The notes under the pieces are model-generated. The model had not been told where the DNA came from, searched no databases, and saw nothing but the letters and a program-made list of their open reading frames with translations. From Prolixibacteraceae bacterium (GTDB taxonomy: Bacteria > Bacteroidota > Bacteroidia > Bacteroidales > Prolixibacteraceae), in NCBI GenBank assembly GCA_031421065.1, contig JANONW010000288.1, positions 2,993 through 66,992 on the forward strand: a stretch of 64,000 nt of DNA, in the 5' to 3' direction. This document shows positions 6,432 to 22,631 of this stretch, in pieces. Each line of letters opens with the position of its first letter. Within the stretch, counting starts at the first letter, position 1. Both the position numbers and the translations under genes were made by a program.

Positions 6432-7733
6432 ATGAAAACAAAAATTGGGATCTTAGTTTTGGCTTTAAGCACAAGCTTCTTCAGTTTGCAGGCACAACGC
6501 ACAGTAACTACAGCTCGTGCAGCAAGTTACGACATAAGCGACAACCTCGACTTGGATGCAGTAGCTTCCATTTTCGGCGATTCAGAAAATCTGGAAGACT
6601 TTGAACGCAGGCTGAACGATCCGGATAACCGGATTTCAAACCTCGACCTGAACGAAGATGGATATATCGACTACCTGCGGGTACTCGAAAATTCATCCGA
6701 CCGCAATTCGCTGGTCGTTGTTCAGGCAGTTCTGGATGAAGCTGTTTATCAGGACGTTGCAACCATTGAAATTGAAAGGGTACAGAACGGAAATCCGCGT
6801 GTACAAATTGTTGGCGACTCTTATATCTATGGTTCAAATTATATCATCGAACCAATGTATGTTCGCACACCGTTGATTTTCTCTTTTTTCTGGAGCCCAC
6901 GATACATTACCTACCATTCGCCATACTATTGGGACTATTATCCAAGTTGGTACAGTTATTACAGGCCTTATTCTCCGTTTAGATATCAAAGGCATGTACA
7001 TGTTCATGTTAACAGGTATAATACATACCATCGTTCAACTACCCGTAATATTTATTTTTCAGGAGACAATTACAATCGCATCCGGAGAAGCGATTACGCA
7101 TCGAGGTATCCTAACCGTACTTTTGAGGGCCGGAATGCAGGTGTAAAAAATCGATATGAACTGGACCAAAGAAGGCCAAACAACCAGGCGAATCGTCAGC
7201 GAGGCAATGATGTGCAGCGGTCAAATAACCGTCAGTATCAGGACAACAGCAAGACAAATTCAGGAAGGAACGAAAGACAAAGGAATGTAATTGAAAACAG
7301 ACGCCCGGGATCGAATGTACAGCCGGAGACCAATCAAACACGGACAAGAGATAACAGCAATGTTAATTCGGCCCAAAAAAGGTCAGGTTCTGCTAATGGT
7401 CCAGTGCAGATGAAGTCAGGCAGCAAAAATGAAGGCAGTTCTGTTTCGAGGAGTCAATCTGCACCAACACAGAACAGATCTGCAAATCAGGTTCAATCGG
7501 CTAAAAGATCTACTGATTCGCGAAGCCAATCAGTTTCAAAACCAACGCCAAACAGATCGCAAAATCAGGTTGGATCACCTCAAAGAAGTTCTGCTCCGAG
7601 AGAAAAATCAGGTTCTGTATCCAGTCAGAGCAGGTCAAACACACAAGTAAAACAAGCTCCGCAAAGTAACAGGAAATCTGAATCACCAAGAAGTGAGGAT
7701 AAAAAAGAAACCGATAACAGCAGAAGAAGATAA
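6432..7733 (+). CDS. Secreted hypothetical protein with a Dx[DN]xDG Ca-binding-like loop, Tyr/Trp/Pro-rich linker and long R/N/S/Q disordered tail
   Basis: Signal peptide MKTKIGILVLALSTSFFSLQA; DLNEDGYIDY; low-complexity C-terminal ~220 aa. Confidence 0.8.
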   Translation: MKTKIGILVLALSTSFFSLQAQRTVTTARAASYDISDNLDLDAVASIFGDSENLEDFERRLNDPDNRISNLDLNEDGYIDYLRVLENSSDRNSLVVVQAVLDEAVYQDVATIEIERVQNGNPRVQIVGDSYIYGSNYIIEPMYVRTPLIFSFFWSPRYITYHSPYYWDYYPSWYSYYRPYSPFRYQRHVHVHVNRYNTYHRSTTRNIYFSGDNYNRIRRSDYASRYPNRTFEGRNAGVKNRYELDQRRPNNQANRQRGNDVQRSNNRQYQDNSKTNSGRNERQRNVIENRRPGSNVQPETNQTRTRDNSNVNSAQKRSGSANGPVQMKSGSKNEGSSVSRSQSAPTQNRSANQVQSAKRSTDSRSQSVSKPTPNRSQNQVGSPQRSSAPREKSGSVSSQSRSNTQVKQAPQSNRKSESPRSEDKKETDNSRRR

Positions 7734-8798: not shown

Positions 8799-10175
8799 AT
8801 GATTAACCGCGAATTACTCGAAAAATACAACCATCCGGTTCCACGATACACCAGTTATCCACCAGCTAATTTCTTTACTGACGAATTTGGTCCGGCAAAA
8901 TATCTGGAAGCTGTCGATCAGTCGAATGGATGGAAACCTCAAAATATTTCCATTTACATTCATATTCCTTTCTGCCTGAAAATGTGCTATTTCTGCGGAT
9001 GTAATTCGTATGCGTTGCGGCAGGCCGATGTGGTGGATGCCTACCATAAAGCCCTCATTCAGGAAATAAAAATGGTGACATCGAGGCTGGATAAAAACCG
9101 AAGAGTTTCGCAGATTCATTACGGTGGAGGTACGCCAAACGCTATTCCTGTTGAATACCTTCAGGAAATCAATGAACTGCTGTTTTCAACGTTCAAATTT
9201 ATTCCTGATCCTGAAATTGCCATCGAGGTCAATCCAGCTTATCTTACGTTCGAGCAAATGACCGGACTAAAAAAGGCCGGATTCAACCGTTTCAGCCTCG
9301 GAATTCAGGATTTTGACACTGAAGTTTTGGATGCTGTGAACCGCGATAAACCCGGGATGCCGGTTCAGGAGTTAATGGCATTTTTAAAACAGGATTCGCC
9401 AGAAATTGCTGTAAACCTTGATTTTATATACGGTTTGCCCAAACAAACAGCCGTTAATTTTGCTGAAACAATTCAGAAAGCGATAGAACTGAAACCCGAT
9501 CGGCTGGTCACTTTTTCGTATGCCCATGTGCCATGGGTAAGCAAAATTCAGAAAAAACTAGAGAACGCAGGACTTCCTGCCAGCAACGAAAAAATCAAAA
9601 TGTTCGAAGCTGCATTTTCACTTCTTACACAAAACGGCTACGAAGCAATCGGAATGGATCATTATGCAAACGCCAACGACGAACTCACCATTGCCCGAAA
9701 AAACAAACAACTGCACCGCAACTTTCAGGGATATTGCACCCGCCGCACCACGGGTCAGGTATATGCTTTTGGTGTTACCGGAATCAGCCAGCTGAGTGGG
9801 GTTTATGCTCAAAACACCAAATCAATCGATCAATATATCGCCAAAATCAACCAAGGTGAATTAACTACCATCAAAGGATATGCGCTCACCGATCAACAAG
9901 TGATTGTGCGCGAAGTCATCAACGAATTGATGTGTAACGAGCAAATTGTCTGGGCCGAAATCGGAGACCGTCTCGGGTTCACTTCCGGCGAAATAAAAAG
10001 ACAGACTACTTACAATCCTGGATTGCTTCATCAATTTGAAACTGACGGACTCATCAGCCTTTATGAAGAAAAAATACGGATTACCCCTGATGGTCAATTG
10101 TTTATCCGTAATGTAGCGGCTTCATTCGATCCGTTGACACAGGCCGGGCAAACCAATTTTTCAAAACCAGTATAA
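8799..10175 (+). CDS. hemN: Oxygen-independent coproporphyrinogen III dehydrogenase (radical SAM)
   Basis: PRYTSYP, HIPFCLKMCYFCGC (CxxxCxxC), GGGTPN, HRNFQGY typical of true HemN. Confidence 0.95.
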   Translation: MINRELLEKYNHPVPRYTSYPPANFFTDEFGPAKYLEAVDQSNGWKPQNISIYIHIPFCLKMCYFCGCNSYALRQADVVDAYHKALIQEIKMVTSRLDKNRRVSQIHYGGGTPNAIPVEYLQEINELLFSTFKFIPDPEIAIEVNPAYLTFEQMTGLKKAGFNRFSLGIQDFDTEVLDAVNRDKPGMPVQELMAFLKQDSPEIAVNLDFIYGLPKQTAVNFAETIQKAIELKPDRLVTFSYAHVPWVSKIQKKLENAGLPASNEKIKMFEAAFSLLTQNGYEAIGMDHYANANDELTIARKNKQLHRNFQGYCTRRTTGQVYAFGVTGISQLSGVYAQNTKSIDQYIAKINQGELTTIKGYALTDQQVIVREVINELMCNEQIVWAEIGDRLGFTSGEIKRQTTYNPGLLHQFETDGLISLYEEKIRITPDGQLFIRNVAASFDPLTQAGQTNFSKPV

Positions 10176-10177
10176 CC

Positions 10178-11557
10178 ATGGCAGAATCAAATCATCATGA
10201 AGTCGTTATTGTTGGCGCCGGATTAACAGGTCTGACAATAGCCCTTTACCTGAAAAAAGCGGGAATAAAGTTCCTGATCATTGATAAATCAGCTAAAACC
10301 GGCGGGGTGATCCAAACCATCAGCGAGCGCGGTTTTGTTTACGAAACAGGCCCTAATACAGGAGTAGTTTCGCATCCTGAAATGACCGAATTGTTTGAGG
10401 ATCTGGCCGGAAAATGTACACTCGAAACAGCAGATCCCAGTGCCAAATGCCGACTGATCTGGAAAAACAACCAGTGGAACGCACTTCCTTCAGGACTTTG
10501 GTCAGCCATTACCACACCACTTTTTACCTGGTACGATAAATTCAGGATCCTGGGCGAACCTTTCCGTGCAAAAGGAACCGATCCAAACGAAAAACTGGCA
10601 GAACTTGTCAAACGCCGGTTGGGAAAAAGTTTCCTCGATTATGCTGTCGATCCGTTTATCTCCGGAATTTATGCAGGAGATCCGAATAAATTGGTTACAC
10701 GTTATGCTTTGCCCAAGCTCTATCAGTTGGAACAGGACTACGGAAGTTTCATCAAAGGTGCCATGAAAAAGGCTAAACTTCCGAAAGACGAACGCTCTAA
10801 AAAAGCCACCCGTGAAGTTTTTTCTGCCAAAGGTGGACTGAGCCGCATGATTGAAGCCATGACCGAATCAATTGGGCCTGAGAATATTGTCCTTTCTGTT
10901 GAAAATACCCTGGTGAAACCAACCTCAAACGGATTTCAGTTGCAGATCACTACTCCGGAACAATTGATTTCGCTGGAAACAACGAACCTTGTTACAACTT
11001 GCGGAGGATATTCTTTGGCTGAATTACTGCCTTTCCTGAACGAAGAGGAAATCGCACCGTTTAATGAGCTGAAATACGCCGCTGTTACACAGGTATTGCT
11101 TGGATTCAAAAAATGGAAAGGCATGTCGTTGAAAGCTTTTGGCGGATTAGTCCCCAGAAAGGAAAACAAAAATATTCTGGGCGTATTATTTACCTCATCG
11201 TTTTTTGAAGGCCGTGCCCCCAAGGGAGGAGCACTGTTATCGGTATTCATGGGAGGTACAAAACGCCCGGATATTGCCGGATTGGACAATGGTGAAATTG
11301 ATACACTTCTAAACAAAGACCTACCGCGAATGCTTAGCGACAGATCATTAAGTGCAGATATGACACGTATTTTGCGATATCCGAAAGCCATTCCACAATA
11401 CACTGAAAGCACGGGCCACCGGTACGAAATGATTGATCAACTTCAGCAAAAATACCCCGGATTGATTTTGGCAGGAAACATTCGCGACGGAATCGGCATG
11501 GCCGACCGGGTAAAACAAGGAAGAAGCATTGCTGATGAACTGATCAGTAAGAGATAA
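10178..11557 (+). CDS. hemY: HemY-type FAD-dependent protoporphyrinogen/coproporphyrinogen oxidase
   Basis: GAGLTGL Rossmann motif, ETGPN, PFISGIYAGD, AIPQY, LAGN. Confidence 0.92.
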   Translation: MAESNHHEVVIVGAGLTGLTIALYLKKAGIKFLIIDKSAKTGGVIQTISERGFVYETGPNTGVVSHPEMTELFEDLAGKCTLETADPSAKCRLIWKNNQWNALPSGLWSAITTPLFTWYDKFRILGEPFRAKGTDPNEKLAELVKRRLGKSFLDYAVDPFISGIYAGDPNKLVTRYALPKLYQLEQDYGSFIKGAMKKAKLPKDERSKKATREVFSAKGGLSRMIEAMTESIGPENIVLSVENTLVKPTSNGFQLQITTPEQLISLETTNLVTTCGGYSLAELLPFLNEEEIAPFNELKYAAVTQVLLGFKKWKGMSLKAFGGLVPRKENKNILGVLFTSSFFEGRAPKGGALLSVFMGGTKRPDIAGLDNGEIDTLLNKDLPRMLSDRSLSADMTRILRYPKAIPQYTESTGHRYEMIDQLQQKYPGLILAGNIRDGIGMADRVKQGRSIADELISKR

Positions 11558-11584
11558 CAATTAAGTTTTAATTTTTGATCTTTG

Positions 11585-11592
11585 TATCTTTC
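11585..11592 (+). promoter_or_regulatory. Possible -7 promoter box for the Fe-S flavoprotein gene
   Basis: TATCTTTC, one mismatch to TAnnTTTG, 36 bp upstream of ATG 11629. Confidence 0.35.
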
Positions 11593-11628
11593 GGGTCAAA
11601 TATCAATATCCATAAATAGAAAAAGAAA

Positions 11629-13191
11629 ATGATAAAACTCACAATAGATAATCAAACCATTGAGGTTCAGCCCGGCACTTCTGTATGGCAGGCTGCCCAT
11701 TCCCTTGGCATCGAAATACCAACTATGTGTTATCTTGAAGGAACTGAACATTTTACATCGTGCATGATCTGTCTGGTAAAAGACACAAAAAATGGAAGAT
11801 TTTTCGCATCCTGTTCCACTCCGGTTTTTGATGGACAATCGATCATTACCAACGATGAAGAAACCATCGAATCGCGGATAGCTGCTCTCGAATTGCTCCT
11901 CAGCGAACATGTTGGCGACTGTGAAGCCCCCTGCCAGTTGGTTTGTCCGGCACACATGAACATTCCGCTGATGAACCGGCTGATTGCCAAAGGCGATTTT
12001 GCCAAGGCACTCGAAGTGGTTAAACGTGATATTGCGTTGCCTTCCATTCTTGGGCGAATTTGTCCGGCTCCGTGCGAGGCGGGCTGCCGACGGAAACAGG
12101 TTGACGAAGCAGTTTCGATTTGTTTATTGAAACGATTTGTGGGCGATGAAGATTTGAAAAGTGGGAAACCTTATCAGCCTCAACTAATTGAACTTTCAGG
12201 CAAAAAAGTAGCTATTATTGGTGCCGGCCCTGCTGGATTGGCTGCCGCGTATTACCTTCAGCAAAAAGGTCATCAGTCAGTAATTTTTGAAAAAGATGAT
12301 CGTGCTGGGGGTGAATTGCTTCAGATTGACACTGAAATTTTACCAAATGAAGTAGTTGAGGAGGAAGTTGCTCAAATTTTGGCAACCGGAGTTCAAATCT
12401 ACCTGAATGAATCCATTGACAACAACCGTTTTATTGAATTACAAAAGGATTTTGATGCTGTTGTTGTAGCCAGTGGAACAGTTTCAGAAGGAAGTTTGGC
12501 ATTCGGGCCAAAGACAGCCAAAGCAGGAATTATTGCTGACAAAAGCAGTTACCTGACATCAATTCCAAAAGTTTTTGCAGTTGGGAACTCGCTTCGTGCA
12601 TCGAAACTCGCTGTCCGATCAGTTGGTCAGGGAAAAGAGGTGGCAACTGTTATCGATAATTATTTTAAAACCTCGGAAGTAAAAGGATATCCGGAGCGGT
12701 TCAATTCAAAATTCGGACGACTGTCTGAAATTGAGTTCATTGAATATCAGAAAGATTCGGAAACTGCACCACGACAAAAAGCTGGTAAAGAAGGTTTCAC
12801 CCGCGAAGCTGCCATCCGCGAGGCCAAACGGTGCATGCATTGCGATTGCCGAAATCCGGAATCTTGTGTGTTACGCGAATTATCTGACCGTTACCATGCT
12901 GTGCAGAAACGCTTTCAGAGCGACCAACGCTTGAATGTAGAGAAGTTTATACACCGCGAGGGAATTGTTTACGAACCGGCCAAGTGCATCAAATGTGGCA
13001 TCTGTGTTCGTTTGACACGGCAGCATCAGGAAGAATTTGGTTTTACCTTTATTGGCCGCGGCTTCGATGTAAAAGTAGGCGTTCCGTTTAACCAAAGCGT
13101 TCAAAAAGGATTGGAGAAAACAGCACAAATCGTGGCAAAAGCTTGTCCGACTGGGGCGTTGGCGATGTTTGAGGTGGAGGAACAGTTGTAG
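11629..13191 (+). CDS. Fe-S flavoprotein: NuoG/HydA-type 2Fe-2S domain + GltD-like Fe-S/FAD module + C-terminal Fe-S domain
   Basis: PTMC..SCMIC..ASC; DCEAPCQLVCP; GRICPAPCEAGC; GAGPAG; CMHCDC..SC; CIKCGIC..CPTGAL. Confidence 0.85.
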   Translation: MIKLTIDNQTIEVQPGTSVWQAAHSLGIEIPTMCYLEGTEHFTSCMICLVKDTKNGRFFASCSTPVFDGQSIITNDEETIESRIAALELLLSEHVGDCEAPCQLVCPAHMNIPLMNRLIAKGDFAKALEVVKRDIALPSILGRICPAPCEAGCRRKQVDEAVSICLLKRFVGDEDLKSGKPYQPQLIELSGKKVAIIGAGPAGLAAAYYLQQKGHQSVIFEKDDRAGGELLQIDTEILPNEVVEEEVAQILATGVQIYLNESIDNNRFIELQKDFDAVVVASGTVSEGSLAFGPKTAKAGIIADKSSYLTSIPKVFAVGNSLRASKLAVRSVGQGKEVATVIDNYFKTSEVKGYPERFNSKFGRLSEIEFIEYQKDSETAPRQKAGKEGFTREAAIREAKRCMHCDCRNPESCVLRELSDRYHAVQKRFQSDQRLNVEKFIHREGIVYEPAKCIKCGICVRLTRQHQEEFGFTFIGRGFDVKVGVPFNQSVQKGLEKTAQIVAKACPTGALAMFEVEEQL

Positions 13192-13216
13192 AAATATTTC
13201 TTCGCTTAACCCGGTT

Positions 13217-13241
13217 GGCTTGTTTTAACAAACAGCCTTTT
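13217..13241 (+). terminator. Possible intrinsic terminator
   Basis: ggct(t)gttt-taac-aaacagcc followed by tttt. Confidence 0.4.
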
Positions 13242-13442
13242 AGTTGATCTTTCAGGTCCTTTTTTGTCTATAAATCAATCTTGTTTACAGCAATTCATTT
13301 ATACTTCAATTTAATTAGATGCTTGATAAATATTTCAAAATTTAATTTTATTAACAAATTTGATACTGTGAATTAATCAATTCGTAAGTTTTATAAAAAG
13401 GGTTTACTATTTTTATAGCTTATTAATGAAAAAAAATCGCCA

Positions 13443-14552
13443 ATGGTTTTAAATAGACTTCTGATAATCCTATTAATAAACATACTCCTTTCAGGCTTCC
13501 TTTCCGCCCAATCTTCCTGGTCCATATTTCGTGGCAACCAACAACTTTCAGGAACAACTTCAGCCAATCTTCCGGATAGACCGAAATTACTTTCCTCGTT
13601 TCAGACCGGTGACGACATTAAAGCTTCACCTGTTATTTCAGGACAAACCATCTTTTGTGGATCGACTGATGGCAGTATGTATGCCATAGGTTTTGATGGC
13701 AAACAAAAATGGAAATTCGATTCAGGGAACGCCATTGAAGCTCCTGCTTTGGTCATGGACGGTTCTGTTGTTTTCGGTTCACTCGATGGAATGTTTTTCA
13801 GGCTCGATGAAAAAACCGGGAAACAAATCTGGAAATATACCACAGACAATCAAATTATGGGTTCGGCAAACTGGCTGAAAGTAGGCAATCAAATCCGACT
13901 GGTGGTTGGCAGTTACGATTACAGCCTGCATGCTGTTGGTTTTGCCAAGGGCGACAGCATCTGGCAATACGAATCGGATAATTACATCAATGGGGCTCCG
14001 GCCATTTATGGTAAAAATGCTGTATTTGGTGGCTGCGATGGTTTTGTCCATTTGGTGAACATCGAGACAGGTAAAGTGTTTAAAAAGATCAAACTCGATA
14101 CTTATGTTGCTTCATCACCGGTGATTGATGGAAAGTTTGTTTATGTAGGTGATTACGAAGGCCGGTTTTTCAGCATCGATCTGGAAGGCGGTAAAGTTGC
14201 CTGGACGTATGATGATCCGGAGAAAAACCTGCCATTTATTGCATCACCGGCCTTGAGCGGAAACATGATCGTAATCGGCAATCAAGACCGGTTTATTTAC
14301 TGTTTTGATAAAAGCACGGGGAAAGTGGTTTGGAAAGTAAGAACCAGTAGCCGTGTAGAATCATCATCGGTAATTGCATCAGGAAAAGTAATTACCGGAA
14401 CCATGGACGGAATGCTGTACATTCACGACCTGAAAACCGGCAAAGAACTTTGGAAATACGAATTGGGCAGCCCGATCATAGGCAGTCCGGCAGTTGTTTC
14501 AGGAAAAATTGTGGTTGGGGCCGGCGATGGGAGGATTTACGTGTTTGGATGA
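13443..14552 (+). CDS. Secreted PQQ-like/BamB-like beta-propeller repeat protein
   Basis: Signal peptide; repeated 'SP.v....v.vG..dG..y.ld..tGk..Wky' blades with Trp-docking motif. Confidence 0.88.
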   Translation: MVLNRLLIILLINILLSGFLSAQSSWSIFRGNQQLSGTTSANLPDRPKLLSSFQTGDDIKASPVISGQTIFCGSTDGSMYAIGFDGKQKWKFDSGNAIEAPALVMDGSVVFGSLDGMFFRLDEKTGKQIWKYTTDNQIMGSANWLKVGNQIRLVVGSYDYSLHAVGFAKGDSIWQYESDNYINGAPAIYGKNAVFGGCDGFVHLVNIETGKVFKKIKLDTYVASSPVIDGKFVYVGDYEGRFFSIDLEGGKVAWTYDDPEKNLPFIASPALSGNMIVIGNQDRFIYCFDKSTGKVVWKVRTSSRVESSSVIASGKVITGTMDGMLYIHDLKTGKELWKYELGSPIIGSPAVVSGKIVVGAGDGRIYVFG

Positions 14553-14720
14553 AGCCCTCCCAAACCCCAAAGCCCCACCCAAACCCTCCCCGAAGGGGGA
14601 GGGCTTTAAAACGCAACTTTGAAAAGTATCTCAACTATATAAGTGAATAATATGGAACAGAGCATTTTTACTCTCCCCCTCCGGGGGGAGCTGGAGGGGG
14701 CTTTGGAAGGGGGAGGCCTT
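14553..14720. repeat. Inverted doublet of C/G-run REP-like palindromes (REPIN/BIME-like)
   Basis: Left unit aagccccacccaaaccctccccgaagggggagggcttt (14570-14607); right unit ctctccccctccggggggagctggagggggctt (14671-14703) in inverted orientation; same layout at 39079-39210. Confidence 0.75.
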
Positions 14721-16022
14721 ATGAAAATCGCACAAATAATCCCGGGGTCGGGCGGTAGTTTTTACTGCGGAAACTGTATGCGCGATAGTAAATTCGTGAA
14801 GGCACTGAAAGATTTAGGTCATCAGGTGATTAAAGTGCCATTGTACTTGCCCATTTTCGGTGATGCCCACGATTTGGACGAAGTTCCTGTTTTTTACGGA
14901 GCGGTAAACCTCTACCTCAAACAGCAATTCCCCATTTTTCGGCACATGCCCGCGTTTGTAGAACATGCGCTTGACTCGAAAAGTGTGTTGGAAATGGCAG
15001 CCCGAAAGGCCGGTTCAACCCGGGCTAAAGGTCTGGAAGAAATGACGATTTCAATGTTGCTGGGCGAAGATGGCGGCCAGAAAGAGGAGCTGGAACGCTT
15101 AGTTGATTGGCTGGCCGATGAGGCCAAACCTGATGTCGTACATTTGTCGAATGCTTTGCTGCTGGGTTTGGCCCACCGCATTAAAGAACGGATGAATGTT
15201 ACGGTTGTTTGTTCGCTTCAGGACGAAGATGTGTGGGTGGATGCCATGGAAGATAAGTATCGTAAAGAAGTTTGGGACTTGATGAGCAAACGCGGTCGTG
15301 ATGTGGATGTGTTTGTTCCGGTAAGCGATTTTTATTCCGCAGAAATTCACAAACGGATGGTCATTCCTGAAACCAAAATGAAAACGGTTCATTTGGGAGT
15401 CGATACCTCGGATTATTCCCCGAAACCAATTTCCGAAAAAGAGACTGTAATAGGCTACTTATCCAGAATGTGCGAAGAAAACGGGCTGGCTATTTTTGTT
15501 GACGGCTTTATTTTACTTCGGAAAGATCCAAAATTTTCAGCAGTAAAACTGAAAATTACCGGTGGCAAAACGGGTGACGATTTACATTTCATCAAAGAAC
15601 AAAAGCAGAAGCTTTCGAAAGCTGGGTTGGAAGCCGATGTGTCTTGGGTAGAAGAATTTGAAGGCGAGGAGCGCCAGAAATTCTTCGATTCGGTCCGAAT
15701 GATTTCGGTTCCGGTATTGAATGGCGAAGCTTTTGGTTTGTATATGCTCGAAGCCATGGCTGCCGGAATTCCGGTGGTTCAGCCTGCTTTGGGAGCTTTT
15801 CCCGAAGTAATTGAAATCAGTGGCGGCGGGGCAATCTATTCGCCCAATGAACCGCAGCAGTTGGCTGATGCACTGGCATCGCTCATTTTGAATGACCAAA
15901 AACTTCAGGAATTAAGCTTTGCCGGGCTTGCCGGAGTGAAAGCCCATTTCGATATTCATGCCCAGGCTCGCAAGATGGTGGCGGTGTATGAAGGCGCATT
16001 AAAAAATGTAGTCATTCCGTGA
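14721..16022 (+). CDS. Glycosyltransferase family 4 (GT-B) with N-terminal CxxC; start moved to ATG 14721
   Basis: MKIAQIIPGSGGSFYCGNC; EAFGLYMLEAMAAGIPVV (GT4 E-x7-E); the track's N-terminal extension is translated REP DNA. Confidence 0.88.
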   Translation: MKIAQIIPGSGGSFYCGNCMRDSKFVKALKDLGHQVIKVPLYLPIFGDAHDLDEVPVFYGAVNLYLKQQFPIFRHMPAFVEHALDSKSVLEMAARKAGSTRAKGLEEMTISMLLGEDGGQKEELERLVDWLADEAKPDVVHLSNALLLGLAHRIKERMNVTVVCSLQDEDVWVDAMEDKYRKEVWDLMSKRGRDVDVFVPVSDFYSAEIHKRMVIPETKMKTVHLGVDTSDYSPKPISEKETVIGYLSRMCEENGLAIFVDGFILLRKDPKFSAVKLKITGGKTGDDLHFIKEQKQKLSKAGLEADVSWVEEFEGEERQKFFDSVRMISVPVLNGEAFGLYMLEAMAAGIPVVQPALGAFPEVIEISGGGAIYSPNEPQQLADALASLILNDQKLQELSFAGLAGVKAHFDIHAQARKMVAVYEGALKNVVIP

Positions 16023-16100
16023 AAAGTAAAAATAAAAATCGAAGGGACCTATCCTTTGCCGTCTGCTTTAGCTGACGGACATGATTATAAAATAAAACTT

Positions 16101-16781
16101 ATGCTATTAAAACTTACCCAAATAACCAAATCTTATTTTTCCGGAAACAATCCGACAGCAAGAACGATTCTCGACCAGCTTGATCTGGAAATTAAGTCAG
16201 GTGAGCGGATTGCCATTGTCGGGCCTTCGGGCTCGGGCAAAACCACTTTGCTGAATCTGATTGGCACTTTGGATCGTCCTGATTCAGGGGAAATGTACTT
16301 CGAAAATCAAGATCTGTCGGTGTTTTCTGATCAGCAACTGGCCGGGTTCCGTAATGAGAAAATCGGGTTTGTGTTCCAGCTTCATCATTTATTACCTCAA
16401 CTCACTTTACTTGAGAATATACTTTTGCCGACTTTGACAGATAAAAAACTTCAGGGAAAGGAAACGCTTGAGCGTGCTCAGAAATTGATTTCACGGATGG
16501 GACTGACCGATGCCGCACACCAGAAACCTTCGGAACTTTCGGGCGGCGAATGTCAGCGGACTGCCGTTGCCCGTGCGCTGATCAACCGCCCGGGACTGAT
16601 TTTGGCCGATGAACCAACTGGTGCCCTCGATCAGAAATCGGCCTTCAATTTGACAGATTTGCTCGTTGAACTAAATCAGGAAGAAGGAGTTACCCTGATT
16701 GTTGTGACTCACTCGATGGAAGTAGCGAAAAAAATGGATCGGATTTATAGCTTGAATGAAGGAAAACTTATAGAGTCTTGA
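16101..16781 (+). CDS. ABC transporter ATP-binding protein, LolD/MacB-like; start moved to ATG 16101
   Basis: Walker A GPSGSGKT, signature LSGGECQR, Walker B ILADEPTG, VTH. Confidence 0.93.
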   Translation: MLLKLTQITKSYFSGNNPTARTILDQLDLEIKSGERIAIVGPSGSGKTTLLNLIGTLDRPDSGEMYFENQDLSVFSDQQLAGFRNEKIGFVFQLHHLLPQLTLLENILLPTLTDKKLQGKETLERAQKLISRMGLTDAAHQKPSELSGGECQRTAVARALINRPGLILADEPTGALDQKSAFNLTDLLVELNQEEGVTLIVVTHSMEVAKKMDRIYSLNEGKLIES

Positions 16782-16811
16782 ATCCTGAATCTCGAATTTT
16801 GAATGACGAAT
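16777..16811. repeat. Heptamer tandem array (NNNGAAT x5)
   Basis: cttgaat cctgaat ctcgaat tttgaat gacgaat. Confidence 0.8.
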
Positions 16812-16839
16812 AGATGGGCAATTTATTCAAAACTCAAAA

Positions 16840-17052
16840 TTGCCCACCGTGGAAAATCTCGAAAAATTAAAAACTTTTTCATTCGATCCGGATAAATATG
16901 AAATCATTGGGAAAGATGCGTTTATCTTCTGTGCTTTAGGTTATAGCGATTCGAAACTGACCAATCAGTTTTTCGAAAGCAAACTGGGAGTTCCGGCTAC
17001 CACCCGAAACTGGAAAACTGTCATCAAACTGAACGAATTGTCTAATATCTAA
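16840..17052 (+). pseudogene. C-terminal remnant of a DUF1697-family gene
   Basis: SKLTNQFFESKLGVPATTRNWKTVIKL is the typical DUF1697 C-terminus; in-frame stop at 16804 removes the N-terminal part. Confidence 0.7.
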
Positions 17053-17075
17053 AATCTATCATCTAAAATCTCATC
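17041..17075. repeat. Heptamer tandem array (TCTNNNN x5)
   Basis: tctaata tctaaaa tctatca tctaaaa tctcatc. Confidence 0.8.
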
Positions 17076-17081
17076 AACCGC

Positions 17082-20000
17082 ATGTCGCTATCCAAACTCA
17101 TACTGAAATCTGCCTGGTTCTACCGGAAACTGAACCTGACTATTATCCTCGGAATTGCTTTAAGCACGGCCATTCTGGTTGGTGCGCTCATCATTGGCGA
17201 TTCGGTGAAATACAGTTTGCAGCAAATCACGGTTCAGCGGCTAGGCAAAACTTCCCAGGTGATTACCGCTGGAGAACGTTTGTTCGGGCAGCAGTTGACC
17301 ATAGAATTGGCCACAAAAACAGGAGTTGTAACCACCGCTTTGCTTCGTGCCAATGGTTTCGGGGTAATCGATGGTGGCGAACTGCGGATCAATCAGTTGG
17401 CTGTCTGGGGTGTAGATTCAACGTTGGGCCGTTTTGCCAATGGTTCAGAATCCTTTATTCTGAATGGAAATGACGTAGCTATAAACGAAAATCTGGCTGC
17501 TTTATCTGGGTTGAAAGTGAACGATGAATTTTTGCTTCGATTGAATAAACTCAATACTTTCCCGGCCAATACGCCTTTTGTTTCAGAAACGGAAACCACA
17601 ATTTCTTTCAGGGTTTCGGTGGCACGAATCCTGAAATCCGAGGAATTGGGGAATTTCAATTTACAAAACATTCAATCCGCGCCGCGCAACGTTTTCCTGA
17701 ATTTGCAATGGCTCAACGAGCAAATGGGACTTCAGCAAAAAGCCAATGTGTTGCTCGTTGCCGAAGGTATTTCAAGTTCAGAACTGATTCAGAAACTTCA
17801 GAAAAGCTGGAAGCTGGAAGACATGAACCTGGAAATCAGGGAAAATCAAACCTTGAATTACACCGAACTGATTTCTGACCGTGTGTTTGTTGAACCGGCG
17901 GTTGAGCAATTTTGCCTGAACAAAATGCCCGGTTCACAGGCTGTTTTCAGCTATTTCATCAACGAATTTACTTTGAAGGGAAAGCAAACGCCGTATTCGT
18001 TTGTCTCGTCCGATCCAAAGCTAACAGGAAATCAAATAATAGCCAGTAATTGGCTGGCCGATGATTTGAAGATAAAATTGAACGATACCGTCCGGCTTTC
18101 TTATTTTGAAGTTGGGCCGTTGCGACGACTGGTTTTGAAGGACACTTCGTTTGTAGTCGGGCATATTTATGAATTGGCAGGGGAAAAGGCCGATCAGAAC
18201 CGGATGCCGGTGATTCCGGGGCTTTCGGATGCGGGCAATTGCCGCGACTGGAAAACCGGTGTGCCTGTTGATCTGAAAAAGATCCGCACCAAAGACGAAG
18301 ATTATTGGAAGGCGCACAAAGGAACTCCGAAAGCTTTTGTCTCGCTCGAAACGGCACAAAAACTCTGGGGGAACCACTTTGGACAATCAACGGCAATTCG
18401 TGTTGACGGACTAAAAAAAGCTGAATTTGAAAGCCAACTTCTTTCAGGACTTAACCCTTCGCAGCTTGGCTTCGAGGTTCGGGATGTAAAAACCGATGGA
18501 CTCGCGGCTGCCAGCGGGGGAACCGATTTTGGAGGACTGTTTATTGGGCTCAGCTTCTTTGTGCTGTTCGCTGCGGTGTTGCTGGCTTTCCTGTTGTTCA
18601 AACTGTACCTCGGATTTCGCAAAACTGAAATCGGAACCTTGACAGCACTCGGATTTTCGTTTCAAACTATTCGCAAACTTTTTGTTGCCGAAGCTTCGGT
18701 ATTTGTGCTGGTCGGTATTTTTCTCGGAATTCCGTTCAGCATTCTATACAACCACCTGATTTTACAAGCCATCAATACCATTTGGGTCGATATTGTCCGT
18801 ACCTCGATTGTCAACATTCACATTCGTCCGGTTTCGCTTATTTTCGGAAGTCTGATTATCGCACTGATGTCATTCACTGCGATTTGGTTCATCCTGAGCC
18901 GTTTCCTGAAAAACGAAGCGATTGCCTTGCAACGAAAACATATCTCAGTAAAACTTAATAACGGGCGATGGTCCCTGAGCCTTGGCCTTTGCCTGATCGC
19001 TTTTTCTGTTATCATCCTGTTCGCGAAAGGTTTCCGGAGTGGTGAAATTAATCCGGAGTTCTTTTTCATCAGCGGTTTCGGACTGTTGCCGGGACTGATC
19101 CTGATTTTCGATTTCTGGATGCACCGATTGGCTGTTCAGGAAAAAGCCATGCATTTTTCGCTGCAGACCATGCTGCTGAAACGCATTGCCGGAGAACGGC
19201 GGCGCAATGTGATGATCGTGAGTTTTCTGTCAGTGGGCGTGTTTATGGTGGTTTCTACCGGATTGAACCGCAAAGACCTGACTTCAAATGCCGATTTGCC
19301 TTCATCGGGAACGGGCGGGTATGACTACTTTGTGGAAACGACCATGCCGGTGCTTTTTGATGTGAACACTCCAAAGGGAAGGGAAGATTTTGATATACCT
19401 GCCGATGCGCAGATTGTGCAGTTTCAGGCTCAGCCGGGCGATGATGCCAGTTGCCTGAACCTGAACCGAATTTCGCGGCCACGTTTGATTGCCTGCAATC
19501 CGGCGGCTTTCGACCAGCGATCGGCATTTACGTTTGCCACGCGGACGGACGATCTGGATGCGCAACATCCGTGGCTGACACTCAACCAGACTTTGGCTGA
19601 CGATGTGATTCCGGCCATTGCCGACCAAACGGTGATTCAGTGGGGATTAATGAAAAAAGTGGGCGACACGCTGCTTTATAAAACGGAAGACGGAAAAGAT
19701 TTGAAGCTGAAACTGGTGGGCGGACTGGCCAATTCGGTTTTTCAGGGCAATGTGATTATTGCCGAAGATCATTTCAACCGGGCATTTCCATCGGTAAGCG
19801 GCTCGAATGTATTCCTGATTGATGTGCCCTACAGTTCGTTGACTGCCGAAGATTTGCAAATCGGAATGCGCAACTATGGCCCCGAAATCAGCCGGACAAC
19901 CGACCGTTTGCTGTCTTTTTACACGGTTGAAAATACTTATCTGAATATCTTCCTGATGCTTGGTGCGCTTGGACTTTTAATCGGCACACTTGGATTGGGA

Positions 20001-20315
20001 ATTTTAATTTTTCGCATCACTTTTGAGCAGATTCCTGAATACGCGTTACTGCTGTCGTTGGGTTTTTCCAAACCAATTATTCAGCGGTTGGTGATGCGCG
20101 AAAAGCTTTTCCTGATGATTGTTTCCGTCCTGATTGGCCTGATTCCAGCCGTATTGAGCGGCCTGCCCACACTGATTTCTTCGCTCTACCCAAACCTGTG
20201 GGTTTGGCTTCCCGCTATTTCTGTTCTGGTGATTTTAAGCGGTGCCGTGTTTAGTTTTGTGGCTATTCGGATGGCTTTCAGGCAGAATTTGGTACAGGCT
20301 ATGAGGAATGAATAA
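17082..20315 (+). CDS. Large type VII (MacB/FtsX-like) ABC permease with two periplasmic domains
   Basis: TM + large periplasmic domain + 3TM unit duplicated; RKTEIGTLTALGFS and QIPEYALLLSLGFS FtsX-type motifs. Confidence 0.88.
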   Translation: MSLSKLILKSAWFYRKLNLTIILGIALSTAILVGALIIGDSVKYSLQQITVQRLGKTSQVITAGERLFGQQLTIELATKTGVVTTALLRANGFGVIDGGELRINQLAVWGVDSTLGRFANGSESFILNGNDVAINENLAALSGLKVNDEFLLRLNKLNTFPANTPFVSETETTISFRVSVARILKSEELGNFNLQNIQSAPRNVFLNLQWLNEQMGLQQKANVLLVAEGISSSELIQKLQKSWKLEDMNLEIRENQTLNYTELISDRVFVEPAVEQFCLNKMPGSQAVFSYFINEFTLKGKQTPYSFVSSDPKLTGNQIIASNWLADDLKIKLNDTVRLSYFEVGPLRRLVLKDTSFVVGHIYELAGEKADQNRMPVIPGLSDAGNCRDWKTGVPVDLKKIRTKDEDYWKAHKGTPKAFVSLETAQKLWGNHFGQSTAIRVDGLKKAEFESQLLSGLNPSQLGFEVRDVKTDGLAAASGGTDFGGLFIGLSFFVLFAAVLLAFLLFKLYLGFRKTEIGTLTALGFSFQTIRKLFVAEASVFVLVGIFLGIPFSILYNHLILQAINTIWVDIVRTSIVNIHIRPVSLIFGSLIIALMSFTAIWFILSRFLKNEAIALQRKHISVKLNNGRWSLSLGLCLIAFSVIILFAKGFRSGEINPEFFFISGFGLLPGLILIFDFWMHRLAVQEKAMHFSLQTMLLKRIAGERRRNVMIVSFLSVGVFMVVSTGLNRKDLTSNADLPSSGTGGYDYFVETTMPVLFDVNTPKGREDFDIPADAQIVQFQAQPGDDASCLNLNRISRPRLIACNPAAFDQRSAFTFATRTDDLDAQHPWLTLNQTLADDVIPAIADQTVIQWGLMKKVGDTLLYKTEDGKDLKLKLVGGLANSVFQGNVIIAEDHFNRAFPSVSGSNVFLIDVPYSSLTAEDLQIGMRNYGPEISRTTDRLLSFYTVENTYLNIFLMLGALGLLIGTLGLGILIFRITFEQIPEYALLLSLGFSKPIIQRLVMREKLFLMIVSVLIGLIPAVLSGLPTLISSLYPNLWVWLPAISVLVILSGAVFSFVAIRMAFRQNLVQAMRNE

Positions 20316-20339
20316 AAAAATCTGTGCAATACATGTTTG

Positions 20340-20639
20340 TTATTTTATTCTCAAATCTTCTGGATTTTGCCTGCAATCCCATACTATATGAACAATAATC
20401 CGATCTTTCGTTATCTCGTAAAACAAAATGAATTCATCAACGATTAGTCCGCGAACTGATTCGATATCAGTTGCTCTCCCTAAGTCAGGTTGTTTGTAGA
20501 GTAAGCTTAATTCTTTTGAGAATCTTTTGTATAGTTTGGTTGAATATGCTGTGCTTTTATTTCGATTGGTGTAAAAATCGAGAATCTCGAAAAGCTTAAT
20601 GTTGGCTCTTTGAGACCAGGTTATTTTGAGCTTTGCCAT
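20340..20639 (-). CDS. ParE/RelE-family type II toxin
   Basis: KITWSQRA, QPDLGR, ILFYEI..IIVHIVWDCRQNP; 99 aa; overlaps upstream small gene. Confidence 0.8.
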   Translation of the reverse strand: MAKLKITWSQRANIKLFEILDFYTNRNKSTAYSTKLYKRFSKELSLLYKQPDLGRATDIESVRGLIVDEFILFYEITKDRIIVHIVWDCRQNPEDLRIK

Positions 20640-20857
20640 TTGTTGAATTTTTCGTCAAGGTCATCTTGCTCAATAAATTGCCCCTGCTCAATCTGCAAGC
20701 GCGATTCGCTGATCTCGCGGCATTGTGCTTCTGTTAATGTCAAAACCTGAGATTGTGCCTTCGAATCCAGAATAGTCTTAATTGCCCGTAAAAAAGACTC
20801 ATCGTCAATTTCTGTTATTCTGTGTATCAACAATTTCTTTAATTCAACCGCTGTCAT
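20621..20857 (-). CDS. Putative antitoxin (78 aa from ATG 20857)
   Basis: MTAVELKKLLIHRITEIDDESFLRAIKTILD, LTEAQ..EI..SRLQIEQG; acidic; directly upstream of the toxin. Confidence 0.7.
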   Translation of the reverse strand: MTAVELKKLLIHRITEIDDESFLRAIKTILDSKAQSQVLTLTEAQCREISESRLQIEQGQFIEQDDLDEKFNKWQSSK

Positions 20858-21150
20858 ATTCCAATAGTTTTTAGACGATAAATATACGATATTCTTAAAG
20901 TTTTTGATTCCTTGCAACTTAAATATCTGTAATTTAGTCAAGTAATCAAAACAATAACTCCAAAAAATTCAAAATAGCTATTAACAGCAATTAGTTGATA
21001 TTCAATCAATAATGGGTTTTCTTAGAAACACTAATTAATAAAACTACACCAAACGTCTTAAAGCGAATTTTATCAATATGATATAATTCCTCTGAGGAAA
21101 GCGGAAATTTGATTATCCACACAATCCAGAATGAACAAAAAAATAAGCAA

Positions 21151-21184
21151 AAAGGCCGTCACAAACTTAATTGAGACGGCCTTT
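21151..21184 (-). terminator. Intrinsic terminator of gltBD
   Basis: aaaggccgtc...gacggccttt stem; T-rich tail on the minus strand. Confidence 0.7.
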
Positions 21185-21206
21185 AATATTTTGGAATTTG
21201 AAATAA

Positions 21207-22631
21207 TTATTCAGGACAAAGATAATCATCCACTTTCGCAGCGGCAATTTTTCCGGCTTCGATCGCACGAACGACAAGGCTGGCACCAGCTTCAATGTCG
21301 CCGCAGGCAAATACTTTTTCAATGGAAGTCTGCTTTTTGGCGTTCACTTTAACATTTCCACGTGAATCGTATTCAATACCTAATTGATCGAGCAAACCGT
21401 TGTGTGCAGGCTGGGTAAAGCCCATCGAAAGCAGCACTATATCGAAATCCATTGTTTCAGACGTTCCGGGAACCTCTGTCATTACCCAACGTCCTGATTC
21501 ATCTTTTCCCCATTCAACGCCCACAAGTTCAACTTGCTTAAGCTGACCATTCTCGCCGATCATCTTTTTGGTAGATAAACTCCAGCGGCGCTCACAACCT
21601 TCCATGTGCGAGCTCGAAGTGCGCAGTGTAGCTGGCCAGTAAGGCCATGGGTTGTTATCAGCACGTTTCGCTGTTGGTTTTGGGAGAATTTCTATCTGTG
21701 TAACGCTTCTCGCCTTTTGACGAATGGAAGTACCCACGCAATCGGAACCAGTGTCGCCACCTCCGATTACAAGCACCCGTTTATCTTTTGCGGTAATACT
21801 TATTTCTTCAGGAATAACTTCGCCGGCAATTCGTTTGTTTTGTTGCATCAAAAATTCCATTGCAAAATGAACACCTTTCAGTTCGCGGCCTTCAACGGGT
21901 AAATCGCGTGCCTGTTCGGCGCCATTGGCCAAAACCACCGCATCAAAATTCGCCAGCAATTCTTCGCGGGTGATGTCGGTACCAACAACTACGTTGGGTC
22001 TAAAAATGATCCCTTCATCAAGGAAAATTGCCAAACGACGATCGATTACGGTTTTGCTTAATTTAAAATCAGGAATTCCAAAACGCAGCAAACCACCAAT
22101 CGCTTTATTTTTCTCAAAGACAGTCACTTCATGGCCGGCCTGATTTAACAGATCGGCCACTGAAAGCCCGGCAGGCCCAGAGCCAACTACTGCGACTTTT
22201 TTACCAGTACGCACTTCAGGAATACGTGGCTGCACAAATCCAAGATTGAAAGCATGCTCAACAGTGGATGCTTCGTTTTCACGAATGGTTACAGTTTCGT
22301 CATGAATTGCCAGTACACAGGCTTTTTCGCAGGGAGCAGGACAAACTCGGCCTGTAAATTCGGGGAAACTGTTGCTCGAATGCAATACTTCGTAAGCGCC
22401 TTTCCAGTCAGCTTTGTAAACCAGATCCTGCCATTCCGGAATTTTACTTCCGACAGGACAGCCCCAGTGGCAAAAATGAACACCGCAATCCATGCAGCGC
22501 TCAGCCTGTTCTTTACGGTCTTTGTCGTCGAGTGTTTGCTCTACTTCACTGTAGTCGTATATTCTGTCATTCAGCGGACGATAACCTGCTTCTTTTCGTC
22601 CTATTGTCATGAAACCTTTTGGATTTCCCAT
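21207..22631 (-). CDS. gltD: Glutamate synthase small subunit
   Basis: RCMDCG..FC..GCP, TGRVCPAPCE, GSGPAG, GGGDTG, FACGD. Confidence 0.97.
   Translation of the reverse strand: MGNPKGFMTIGRKEAGYRPLNDRIYDYSEVEQTLDDKDRKEQAERCMDCGVHFCHWGCPVGSKIPEWQDLVYKADWKGAYEVLHSSNSFPEFTGRVCPAPCEKACVLAIHDETVTIRENEASTVEHAFNLGFVQPRIPEVRTGKKVAVVGSGPAGLSVADLLNQAGHEVTVFEKNKAIGGLLRFGIPDFKLSKTVIDRRLAIFLDEGIIFRPNVVVGTDITREELLANFDAVVLANGAEQARDLPVEGRELKGVHFAMEFLMQQNKRIAGEVIPEEISITAKDKRVLVIGGGDTGSDCVGTSIRQKARSVTQIEILPKPTAKRADNNPWPYWPATLRTSSSHMEGCERRWSLSTKKMIGENGQLKQVELVGVEWGKDESGRWVMTEVPGTSETMDFDIVLLSMGFTQPAHNGLLDQLGIEYDSRGNVKVNAKKQTSIEKVFACGDIEAGASLVVRAIEAGKIAAAKVDDYLCPE

Follow-up and report, generated by a model that had tools for sequence, protein, structure and literature searches.

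The five co-oriented genes located at positions 11629–20315 of a 64,000-nucleotide stretch of DNA from a Prolixibacteraceae bacterium (assembly GCA_031421065.1, contig JANONW010000288.1, positions 2,993 to 66,992; the whole stretch is hereafter called the window) were shown to be the distal half of an operon of 11–16 genes. They encode an iron-sulfur (Fe-S) flavoprotein, a secreted propeller protein (P372), a glycosyltransferase (GT4), an ATP-binding cassette (ABC) ATPase and a large permease. Gene content, gene order, phyletic coupling, domain architecture, fold and conserved residues were observed directly, and they carry our interpretation that the five genes belong to a conserved two-module envelope system, which in this genome is split between two loci; we favor this interpretation with a probability of about 0.55. 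An initial annotation of the window, made from the sequence alone, had described the genes as a self-contained, redox-coupled glycosylation and export pathway with a possible link to porphyrin export. The co-occurrence of the genes and the lack of a matching known pathway were borne out, and so was the idea that redox chemistry is tied to a type VII ABC machine, a tie seen here as a shared operon and as coupling of the permease to a NapH-like gene. Neither the self-contained pathway nor the porphyrin link was sustained.

The Complete Operon and Its Distribution

Operon structure was determined from 20-kb neighborhoods of permease homologs in 20 different families of the order, with the open reading frames (ORFs) clustered. 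The complete operon was found to start with extra PQQ_2 propellers, followed by a transmembrane (TM)-anchored propeller (P476, ~476 amino acids, aa), an NHL propeller (~322 aa), a NapG-like polyferredoxin (~192 aa), a NapH-like Fer4_5 membrane protein (~430 aa), a propeller with a membrane N-terminus (P620, ~620 aa) and a NuoE/NuoF fusion (NuoEF, ~782 aa); the flavoprotein, P372, GT4, ATPase and permease genes form its end. The order P476-NHL-NapG-NapH-P620-NuoEF-flavoprotein-P372-GT4-ATPase-permease was collinear in about 13 of the 20 loci (30–55% identity).

In the window's own assembly, tblastn detected every proximal component once, on contig C381 (about 12.6–27.7 kb). This set consists of four soluble propellers, a 472-aa propeller, the NHL protein, the NapG-like and NapH-like proteins, a 614-aa propeller and a 785-aa NuoE/NuoF fusion with 2Fe-2S_thioredx, Complex1_51K, NADH_4Fe-4S and Fer4_21 domains. 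A twin-arginine signal and 17 cysteines were found in the NapG-like protein, and the NapH-like protein contains, besides Fer4_5, CxxxCP and 4Fe-4S motifs. N-terminal membrane anchors were seen on three propeller-type proteins of C381, and the NHL protein carries an invariant vicinal GCCNP motif. An ORF6N-domain gene was found inserted between the NapG-like and NapH-like genes (L082:11940–12461, contig C381).

Permease, NapH-like, GT4 and P372 genes were searched for in the same 201 genomes of the order, with a maximum of two genomes per family. Matches were present in 34, 34, 31, and 32 genomes, respectively, and the permease-containing genomes were shared with NapH-like in 33 cases, with GT4 in 30 and with P372 in 31. 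Of the 35 genomes with at least one of the four genes, 29 had all of them and 33 had both permease and NapH-like; five of the six partial cases were fragmented or 70–74% complete assemblies. The coupling persisted where the genes were located on different contigs, e.g., in G525, G607, G597, and G692. Within the window's family, the permease was present in 65 of 101 genomes and in 23 of 36 genera, and the system is therefore accessory rather than essential.

The gene-neighborhood comparison that the initial annotation had proposed as a check was carried out, and the genes were found to co-occur across many families of the order and in another phylum. Beyond Bacteroidota, permease homologs carried the NCBI labels Planctomycetota, Verrucomicrobiota, Armatimonadota/Abditibacteriaceae, and Poribacteria. 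On a Planctomycetaceae-labelled contig, so named since its permease falls in the same 90% cluster as a protein of a Planctomycetaceae metagenome-assembled genome (MAG), gene order was the same from NapH-like through to the permease, with orthologs of the propeller, GT4 and flavoprotein at 39, 35, and 44% identity and with the FYCxNC motif of GT4 kept. On a Poribacteria-labelled contig, a P372 ortholog (40% identity) was located just 5′ of the ATPase and permease genes, with orthologs of two other propeller types nearby. This contig also contains a gene for a flavodiiron-type protein (Lactamase_B, ODP and Flavodoxin_1 domains) immediately 3′ of the permease and 5′ of a P476-type propeller (L185:13552–14751). 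Full clusters were found in Lewinellaceae- and Roseivirgaceae-labelled records. Among named isolates, carriers of the cluster include Mangrovibacterium lignilyticum, Sunxiuqinia indica, Mariniphaga sediminis, Gaoshiqia hydrogeniformans, Draconibacterium sp. and Aquipluma nitroreducens. In an even sample of 400 Bacteroidota genomes (seven from the order, two candidates scored per genome), the window's genome was the sole match, and from these searches the system appears to be rare, or to be missed, outside Bacteroidales. A “Chlorobiota” record (L160) was rejected as a second phylum, the same genome (G405/G699) being placed by GTDB in the window's own family.

The Flavoprotein

The flavoprotein was shown to contain a NuoG-type 2Fe-2S domain, a two-cluster 4Fe-4S Fer4_20 domain (DPD domain II type), a single FAD Rossmann fold and C-terminal Cys motifs, and all its NCBIfam matches were below equivalog cut-offs. 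Among proteins of solved structure, the A subunits of NfnABC/StnABC (9bov_A, 8oh5_C, and 9n5u_A; E 1e-82 to 1e-74) matched it best. Residues 2–302 aligned with residues 4–304 of 9bov_A and residues 296–511 with 447–671, and the alignments with 8oh5_C and 9n5u_A were similar. No NADP(H) Rossmann domain was found in the flavoprotein, as the 9bov_A alignment jumps from ~304 to ~447; likewise, GltD residues ~238–394 have no counterpart in it, only one GxGxxG motif is present, and the C-terminal ~500-aa molybdopterin-oxidoreductase-like part of NfnA/StnA is absent from the alignment. The protein has a NuoG-type N-terminus, as is typical of BfuA, and a NuoF/NuoE-like core is encoded by a separate gene directly upstream in other genomes and on C381 here; it lacks the NADP(H)-binding Rossmann domain that characterizes subunit A of the Nfn/Stn type. 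By sequence comparison, it is a BfuA-like (NfnA/StnA-type) subunit that should be unable to bind NADP(H) in the usual way, and the NuoE/NuoF fusion is its expected BfuBC partner. Assignment as GltD was rejected (PRK12814, 386 vs. a cut-off of 916; TIGR01317, 143 vs. 448; NADPH domain absent), and a true gltD (622 bits) was found at 21207–22631 on the minus strand.

These results bear on the claim that the five genes form a pathway of their own, in which the flavoprotein performs the redox step, GT4 glycosylates an envelope molecule or cofactor, the ABC transporter exports it and the propeller carries it. That the five genes stay together in split operons and are separated by short intergenic gaps in other lineages would fit such a pathway. 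However, the BfuA-type flavoprotein itself lacks an NAD(P)H site, and the gene for its partner lies outside the cluster; in most genomes the five genes terminate a longer operon, the remainder of which is on C381 in this one; and the permease is coupled to the NapH-like gene as described above; a self-contained pathway is therefore judged improbable.

The Permease and the ATPase

The initial annotation was right about the double-FtsX nature and the length (1077 aa) of the permease, the Pfam FtsX model matching two stretches. Hydropathy analysis predicted 10 TM helices and two periplasmic domains (residues 40–485 and 729–957), and the two Cys motifs noted earlier, one per periplasmic domain (DAGNC387RDW and DASC791LNLN), sit in these predicted domains. 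Among 149 diverse full-length representatives (34–57% identity), C791 was present in 149/149 and C387 in 145/149 (97%); the ASCLNL motif around C791 was more than 95% conserved, and the three other cysteines of the permease were not conserved. Judged from this alignment, the conservation of C387 and C791 exceeds chance.

An AlphaFold2 (AF2) model of the permease made from 15 orthologs (pLDDT 82, pTM 0.72) showed E. coli YbbP (9ge6_A) as its top Foldseek match over the full length (E 1.7e-17), with BceB, MacB, LolE, and HrtB ranking after it (HrtB at rank 13, E 2e-7). A phmmer search of the permease against PDB gave nothing at E 0.01, and a profile search against PDB matched YtrF, LolF, BceB, YbbP, LolC/E, and MacB. 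When the two halves were compared with each other by BLAST, similarity was confined to the FtsX helices. The family comprises 2680 clusters (50% identity) at E ≤ 1e-30, and the nearest named permease is that of Aquipluma nitroreducens (82% identity). Two FtsX-type 4-helix modules in one polypeptide, each with an extracytoplasmic domain behind its first helix, and a separate MacB/LolD-type ATPase encoded alongside place the transporter in the type VII ABC class, within the YbbAP-like fused subgroup. On contig C25 of the window's own genome (G000; L002, 2496–2765), a 90-codon fragment 74% identical to permease residues 971–1060 and containing two TAA stops was found, which resembles a decayed second permease copy or an assembly fragment.

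The ATPase showed an ABC_tran match of 122 bits, and its best models were LolD, MacB, DevA, and YbbA, all under equivalog cut-offs (LolD TIGR02211, 254.5 vs. 307.75; the DevA model reached 189.7 bits, also below its cut-off). Orthologs are 222–236 aa long and align from residue ~12–17 of the ORF; the true start is likely the ATG at 16101.

A generic MacB/LolCDE-type function beside redox genes, i.e., antimicrobial-peptide or detergent efflux or lipoprotein release, would agree with the public annotation of homologs as “antimicrobial peptide transport system permease” and with LolD being the best-scoring ATPase model. We consider it very improbable, since LolD scored under its cut-off, LolC/LolE models did not match the permease, the propellers carry signal peptides or TM anchors and no lipobox, and genes for a membrane-fusion protein and TolC are not in the cluster. 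Besides, the strict phyletic coupling to redox genes and the (near-)invariant periplasmic cysteines would be unexpected for a drug pump.

P372 and the GT4 Glycosyltransferase

P372 matched the Pfam PQQ_2 model with 191 bits and carries an N-terminal signal peptide without a lipobox Cys. With this signal peptide and eight GxxDG repeats, it agrees with the secreted 8-blade propeller described previously. Only the general PQQ_2 propeller family matched; assignments as BamB (TIGR03300, 153 vs. 285) or as a PQQ-dependent dehydrogenase (TIGR03075, 81 vs. 480) were rejected. The sequence G196-G197-C198-D199 in blade 4 was invariant in 19 orthologs, including the planctomycete- and Poribacteria-labelled ones (39–40% identity), and P372 orthologs adjoin ABC genes in three phyla according to NCBI labels.

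The CxxC motif attributed to GT4 was found near the N-terminus (FYC16GNC19). Alignment of orthologs showed that the conserved N-terminus starts at the ATG at 14721 and that C16, C19, H141, and C164 are invariant; the E336-x7-E344 motif is kept and a ~100-aa helical insert (residues 41–138) is conserved. Both the Glycos_transf_1 and the Glyco_transf_4 Pfam cut-offs were passed, and with the conserved E-x7-E motif and GT4 structures among the Foldseek matches of the AF2 model (pLDDT 86) the protein belongs to the GT4 class of retaining glycosyltransferases with a GT-B fold. Its Foldseek neighbors were generic (MshA, GlgM, BshA, SPS, PglA, and PimA) and do not settle the acceptor; assignment as MshA or BshA was rejected at the level of the equivalogs (62.8 vs. 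462.5 and 47.3 vs. 273.7 bits).

The Adjacent Heme Genes

Genes for hemE, hemN and protoporphyrinogen oxidase (hemY), all passing NCBIfam cut-offs, are located directly upstream of the five-gene cluster. Among 80 loci collected by means of the GT4 motif, NuoEF was directly upstream of the flavoprotein in most close relatives (75–90% identity); five close relatives, as well as two records of a lineage with 57% identity, showed the hemN-hemY-flavoprotein junction. In the unsplit genomes (Aquipluma and G702–G706; n = 6), hemY and hemF were adjacent at the end of the heme operon, which was located 13–22 kb beyond the permease on the opposite strand. This genome and its relative G696 instead showed NuoEF followed by hemF and hemY followed by the flavoprotein, with the reciprocal NuoEF>hemF junction located on C381 in this genome. 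The two junctions fit one inversion with putative breakpoints in the NuoEF/flavoprotein and hemY/hemF spacers, and the heme adjacency is therefore regarded as a by-product of rearrangement rather than a functional link. A single simple inversion would be insufficient, because neither hemF nor NuoEF was found in the 64 kb of contig C288 that lie beyond the permease, and the flank 3′ of the permease differs from that of relatives; additional rearrangement, or inversion of a longer segment, must be assumed. Two Bacteroidales-/Mariniphaga-labelled MAGs (L131 and L135, ~57% identity) share the window's junction, with many intermediate lineages unsplit and with NuoEF not followed by hemF; repeated breakage at the same two spacers, or transfer, are candidate explanations.

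A heme or porphyrin exporter tied to the upstream heme operon would be in line with the position of the cluster 71 bp 3′ of the protoporphyrinogen oxidase gene, with HrtB being among the fold relatives of the permease (rank 13) and with the recurrence of the hemY junction in the 57%-identity lineage. Yet heme genes flank the cluster only in some Prolixibacteraceae, the 20 loci sampled from the order's other families gave no hemY, hemN, or hemE match, and heme genes are absent from the planctomycete-labelled locus. As also the heme operon lies far off and on the other strand in the six unsplit relatives, the junctions are reciprocal, as one inversion would produce, and HrtB ranks far below YbbP, we consider the porphyrin link raised in the initial annotation extremely improbable.

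Proposed Mechanism and Alternatives

In the proposed system, module 1, encoded mostly on C381, would consist of the NuoE/NuoF fusion (BfuBC-like), the NapH-like and NapG-like proteins, and the membrane-anchored and soluble PQQ_2 and NHL propellers, with the flavoprotein of the window as its missing BfuA-like subunit. NuoEF and the flavoprotein would form a Bfu-like cytoplasmic complex oxidizing NADH, possibly together with ferredoxin. Electrons would leave via the Fe-S chain of the flavoprotein to the NapH-like protein, from there to the exported NapG-like ferredoxin, and finally to the periplasmic propellers. Module 2 would consist of the ATPase, the 10-TM YbbP-like permease, P372 and GT4. 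By analogy with YbbAP-TesA, the permease may lift a membrane-embedded molecule from the inner membrane by ATP-driven mechanotransmission; this could be a glycosylated lipid or carrier made by GT4. The permease would present it to P372, its best partner candidate, and to other propellers. The thiols of C387 and C791 in the permease and of C198 in P372 may take part in handling the molecule, with the electron chain supplying reducing power. Which proteins make contact, in which direction electrons flow, what the substrate is and how the cysteines act are inferred from this arrangement.

A more specific version would make the system an energy-coupled periplasmic reductase, in which a Bfu-like module feeds a NapGH-like conduit and cofactor-less propellers, and an ABC-extracted (glyco)conjugate is held on a three-Cys relay (C387, C791, and C198) as a covalent thiol-linked intermediate. 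This version is speculative, and we think it rather unlikely.

Several observations weigh against the two-module interpretation. The similarity between the permease and YbbP is at fold level only (12% identity, TM-score 0.44/0.55), and a recognizable metal or cofactor site was found in none of the propellers examined. Genome G686, a good assembly of 10 contigs, keeps flavoprotein-P372-ATPase-permease (L066, G686:C2) without GT4 anywhere (E ≤ 1e-40), and the GT4 product is therefore not indispensable. Around the ATPase-permease pairs of Verrucomicrobiae- and Armatimonadota-labelled contigs, no GT4 or redox genes were detected within 20 kb. Finally, the genomes compared are related and the co-occurrence counts overstate independence, so that they describe a pattern and are not a statistical test.

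The main rival explanation is a maturation module, in which the ABC machine and GT4, instead of acting on the substrate of the system, would assemble, insert or maintain a periplasmic propeller/Fe-S complex and the cysteines would serve cofactor or sulfur delivery. NosDFY and NosL serve NosZ, and CcmAB serve cytochromes c, in this manner. The operon is laid out like a nos cluster, which combines a propeller enzyme with NapGH-like electron input and an ABC system. In addition, ABC and redox genes show tight phyletic coupling, and a single invariant Cys is typical of relay or carrier proteins. NosDFY, however, is of the ABC-2 and not the FtsX type, the propellers examined show no conserved motif for binding copper, heme or another cofactor, and YbbAP, the nearest fold relative, presents substrates to an enzyme and does not mature it. 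Maturation is accordingly a real possibility, though one we doubt, and the two-module system is preferred.

Gene Coordinates, Composition and Neighboring Features

The five co-oriented ORFs reported for 11629–20315 by the initial annotation were all recovered, on the plus strand (Table 1). None of the five proteins reached any curated NCBIfam equivalog cut-off, and neither Pfam nor NCBIfam models assigned the genes to one pathway, in agreement with the earlier view that the set matches no known pathway.

Table 1. Features of the five-gene cluster and its borders in the window.
Feature	Position	Strand	Basis
hemY/flavoprotein junction (rearrangement breakpoint)	11558–11628		Comparison with relatives
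Fe-S flavoprotein, BfuA-like, 520 aa	11629–13191	+	Pfam/NCBIfam domains: Fer2_4, Fer4_20, FAD Rossmann fold, C-terminal 4Fe-4S motifs
P372 propeller, secreted, 369 aa	13443–14552	+	PQQ_2 family, signal peptide, eight GxxDG blade repeats
Spacer with G/C-run palindromes 5′ of GT4 start	14553–14720		Sequence reading
GT4 glycosyltransferase, 433 aa	14721–16022	+	Pfam Glycos_transf_1 and Glyco_transf_4; ORF opens with GTG at 14643
ABC ATPase, LolD/MacB-like, 226 aa	16101–16781	+	Pfam ABC_tran; ORF opens with TTG at 16056
DUF1697 gene remnant	16837–17040	+	tblastn
Fused YbbP-like permease, 1077 aa, predicted 10 TM	17082–20315	+	Pfam FtsX twice

The GC content of 50–60% that had been estimated for the permease gene was not confirmed: a value of 47.0% (GC3 52%) was computed, compared to 41.8% for hemA and 42.8% for the genome. 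The gene is above its neighbors and ranks in the top ~2% of 3.2-kb segments. A foreign origin of the permease was rejected, the shift being modest and relatives holding orthologs at the same position.

The 300-bp gap 5′ of the permease contains the C-terminal 68 codons of a DUF1697 gene, with 63% identity to residues 111–178 of the 182-aa DUF1697 protein of L003 and L004, where the intact gene, together with a RhuM-family gene, was found between the ATPase and permease genes. ThuA and other inserts were also seen inside operons of relatives, and given these inserts, the operon tolerates passenger genes. The spacer 5′ of GT4 contains palindromes of the CCCTCCC...GGGGGAGGG type, part of which would be translated in the ORF from the GTG at 14643.

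A 433-aa ORF within the heme operon (6432–7733) showed no Pfam or NCBIfam match and is kept at the same place in L089, L100, and L105 (56–78% identity). Just 3′ of the permease, on the minus strand, two small overlapping ORFs (99 and 106 aa; 20340–20941) are common only to two relatives, L087 and L097 (72–93% identity); gltD-gltB, next in the window, was not adjacent in any relative examined. An Rfam scan of window positions 1–30000 and of five full operons gave nothing at the gathering threshold, and in a promoter/terminator consensus scan of 10000–21300 sites were no more numerous than in shuffled sequence.

Significance and Comparison with Known Systems

Neither the permease family, with at least 2680 clusters at 50% identity, nor the coupled operon has a member with an assigned function. 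If the two-module interpretation is true, many bacteria would possess a hitherto undescribed way of delivering cytoplasmic reducing power to the periplasm, and it would be connected with an ATP-driven membrane extractor; a redox-linked role would be added to those of type VII ABC systems, after cell division, lipoprotein sorting, efflux, and lipid hydrolysis, and the Bfu enzyme family would gain a membrane-linked branch. Should the three-Cys relay be true as well, participation in redox or thiol chemistry would be shown for a type VII ABC transporter for the first time. Three misleading labels, “glutamate synthase small subunit,” “BamB,” and “antimicrobial peptide permease,” are corrected, and half-operons like that of the window should be read jointly with their detached partner locus.

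No characterized system has this gene combination, and a literature search on the combination returned nothing relevant; the parts belong to known superfamilies. Membership in LolCDE was rejected (LolD score under the cut-off, no LolC/LolE match of the permease, and propellers without lipobox Cys), as was membership in the HrtBA type of heme exporters, since the heme linkage is confined to a subset of Prolixibacteraceae and HrtB is only the 13th fold match. MshA and BshA are among the best fold matches of GT4 (TM-score up to 0.72/0.82), and the E-x7-E motif is shared with them; the FYCxNC loop, C164 and the 100-aa helical insert, in contrast, are specific to the GT4 family of the window, and BshB/BshC-like genes are not in the cluster. 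The FtsX-type permease with a DevA/MacB-like ATPase is reminiscent of DevBCA-HgdD and MacAB-TolC, and the Dev system, a heterocyst glycolipid exporter, adjoins glycolipid synthesis genes. The window's permease differs in being fused and duplicated, and a membrane-fusion or outer-membrane duct gene is missing from the cluster.

In systems of the NapGH and NosGH-NosZ-NosDFY type, as in the one described here, a single cluster encodes a Tat-exported polyferredoxin, a membrane protein with Fer4_5, a propeller located in the periplasm and an ABC system. However, NapH and NosR models scored far under their cut-offs, motifs for Cu or heme were not seen, electrons probably come from a cytoplasmic NADH module and not from quinol, and the ABC system is of type VII and not ABC-2.

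The flavoprotein aligns with the N-terminal ~670 residues of NfnA/StnA of the Bfu family (NfnABC/StnABC; 9bov, 9n5u, and 8oh5; PMC9304861), and the BfuC/BfuB-like NuoE/NuoF fusion is its conserved upstream neighbor in other genomes. In contrast to NfnA/StnA, it has neither the NADP(H) domain nor the molybdopterin-oxidoreductase-like C-terminal domain; BfuB and BfuC are fused here, and there is a genetic link to NapGH-like proteins and exported propellers. A propeller- or NapH-linked variant is not described in the Bfu survey (Schut et al., 2022; PMC9304861), in which the terms “NapH,” “PQQ,” and “propeller” never occur.

The closest likeness in transporter architecture is with E. coli YbbAP, which forms a complex with the periplasmic hydrolase TesA as partner enzyme (PMC12646458). 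In both, a single fused permease comprises two FtsX modules, with 10 TM helices and two periplasmic domains in total, the ATPase is encoded separately, and a gene for a secreted protein adjoins the transporter genes. The permease of the window is 270 aa longer than YbbP, with a first periplasmic domain of 445 aa, and the adjoining gene encodes a propeller, whereas that of YbbAP encodes a GDSL hydrolase. Unlike YbbAP, the system described here has near-invariant periplasmic cysteines and GT4 as a companion, and it is obligatorily coupled to an Fe-S module for electron transfer.

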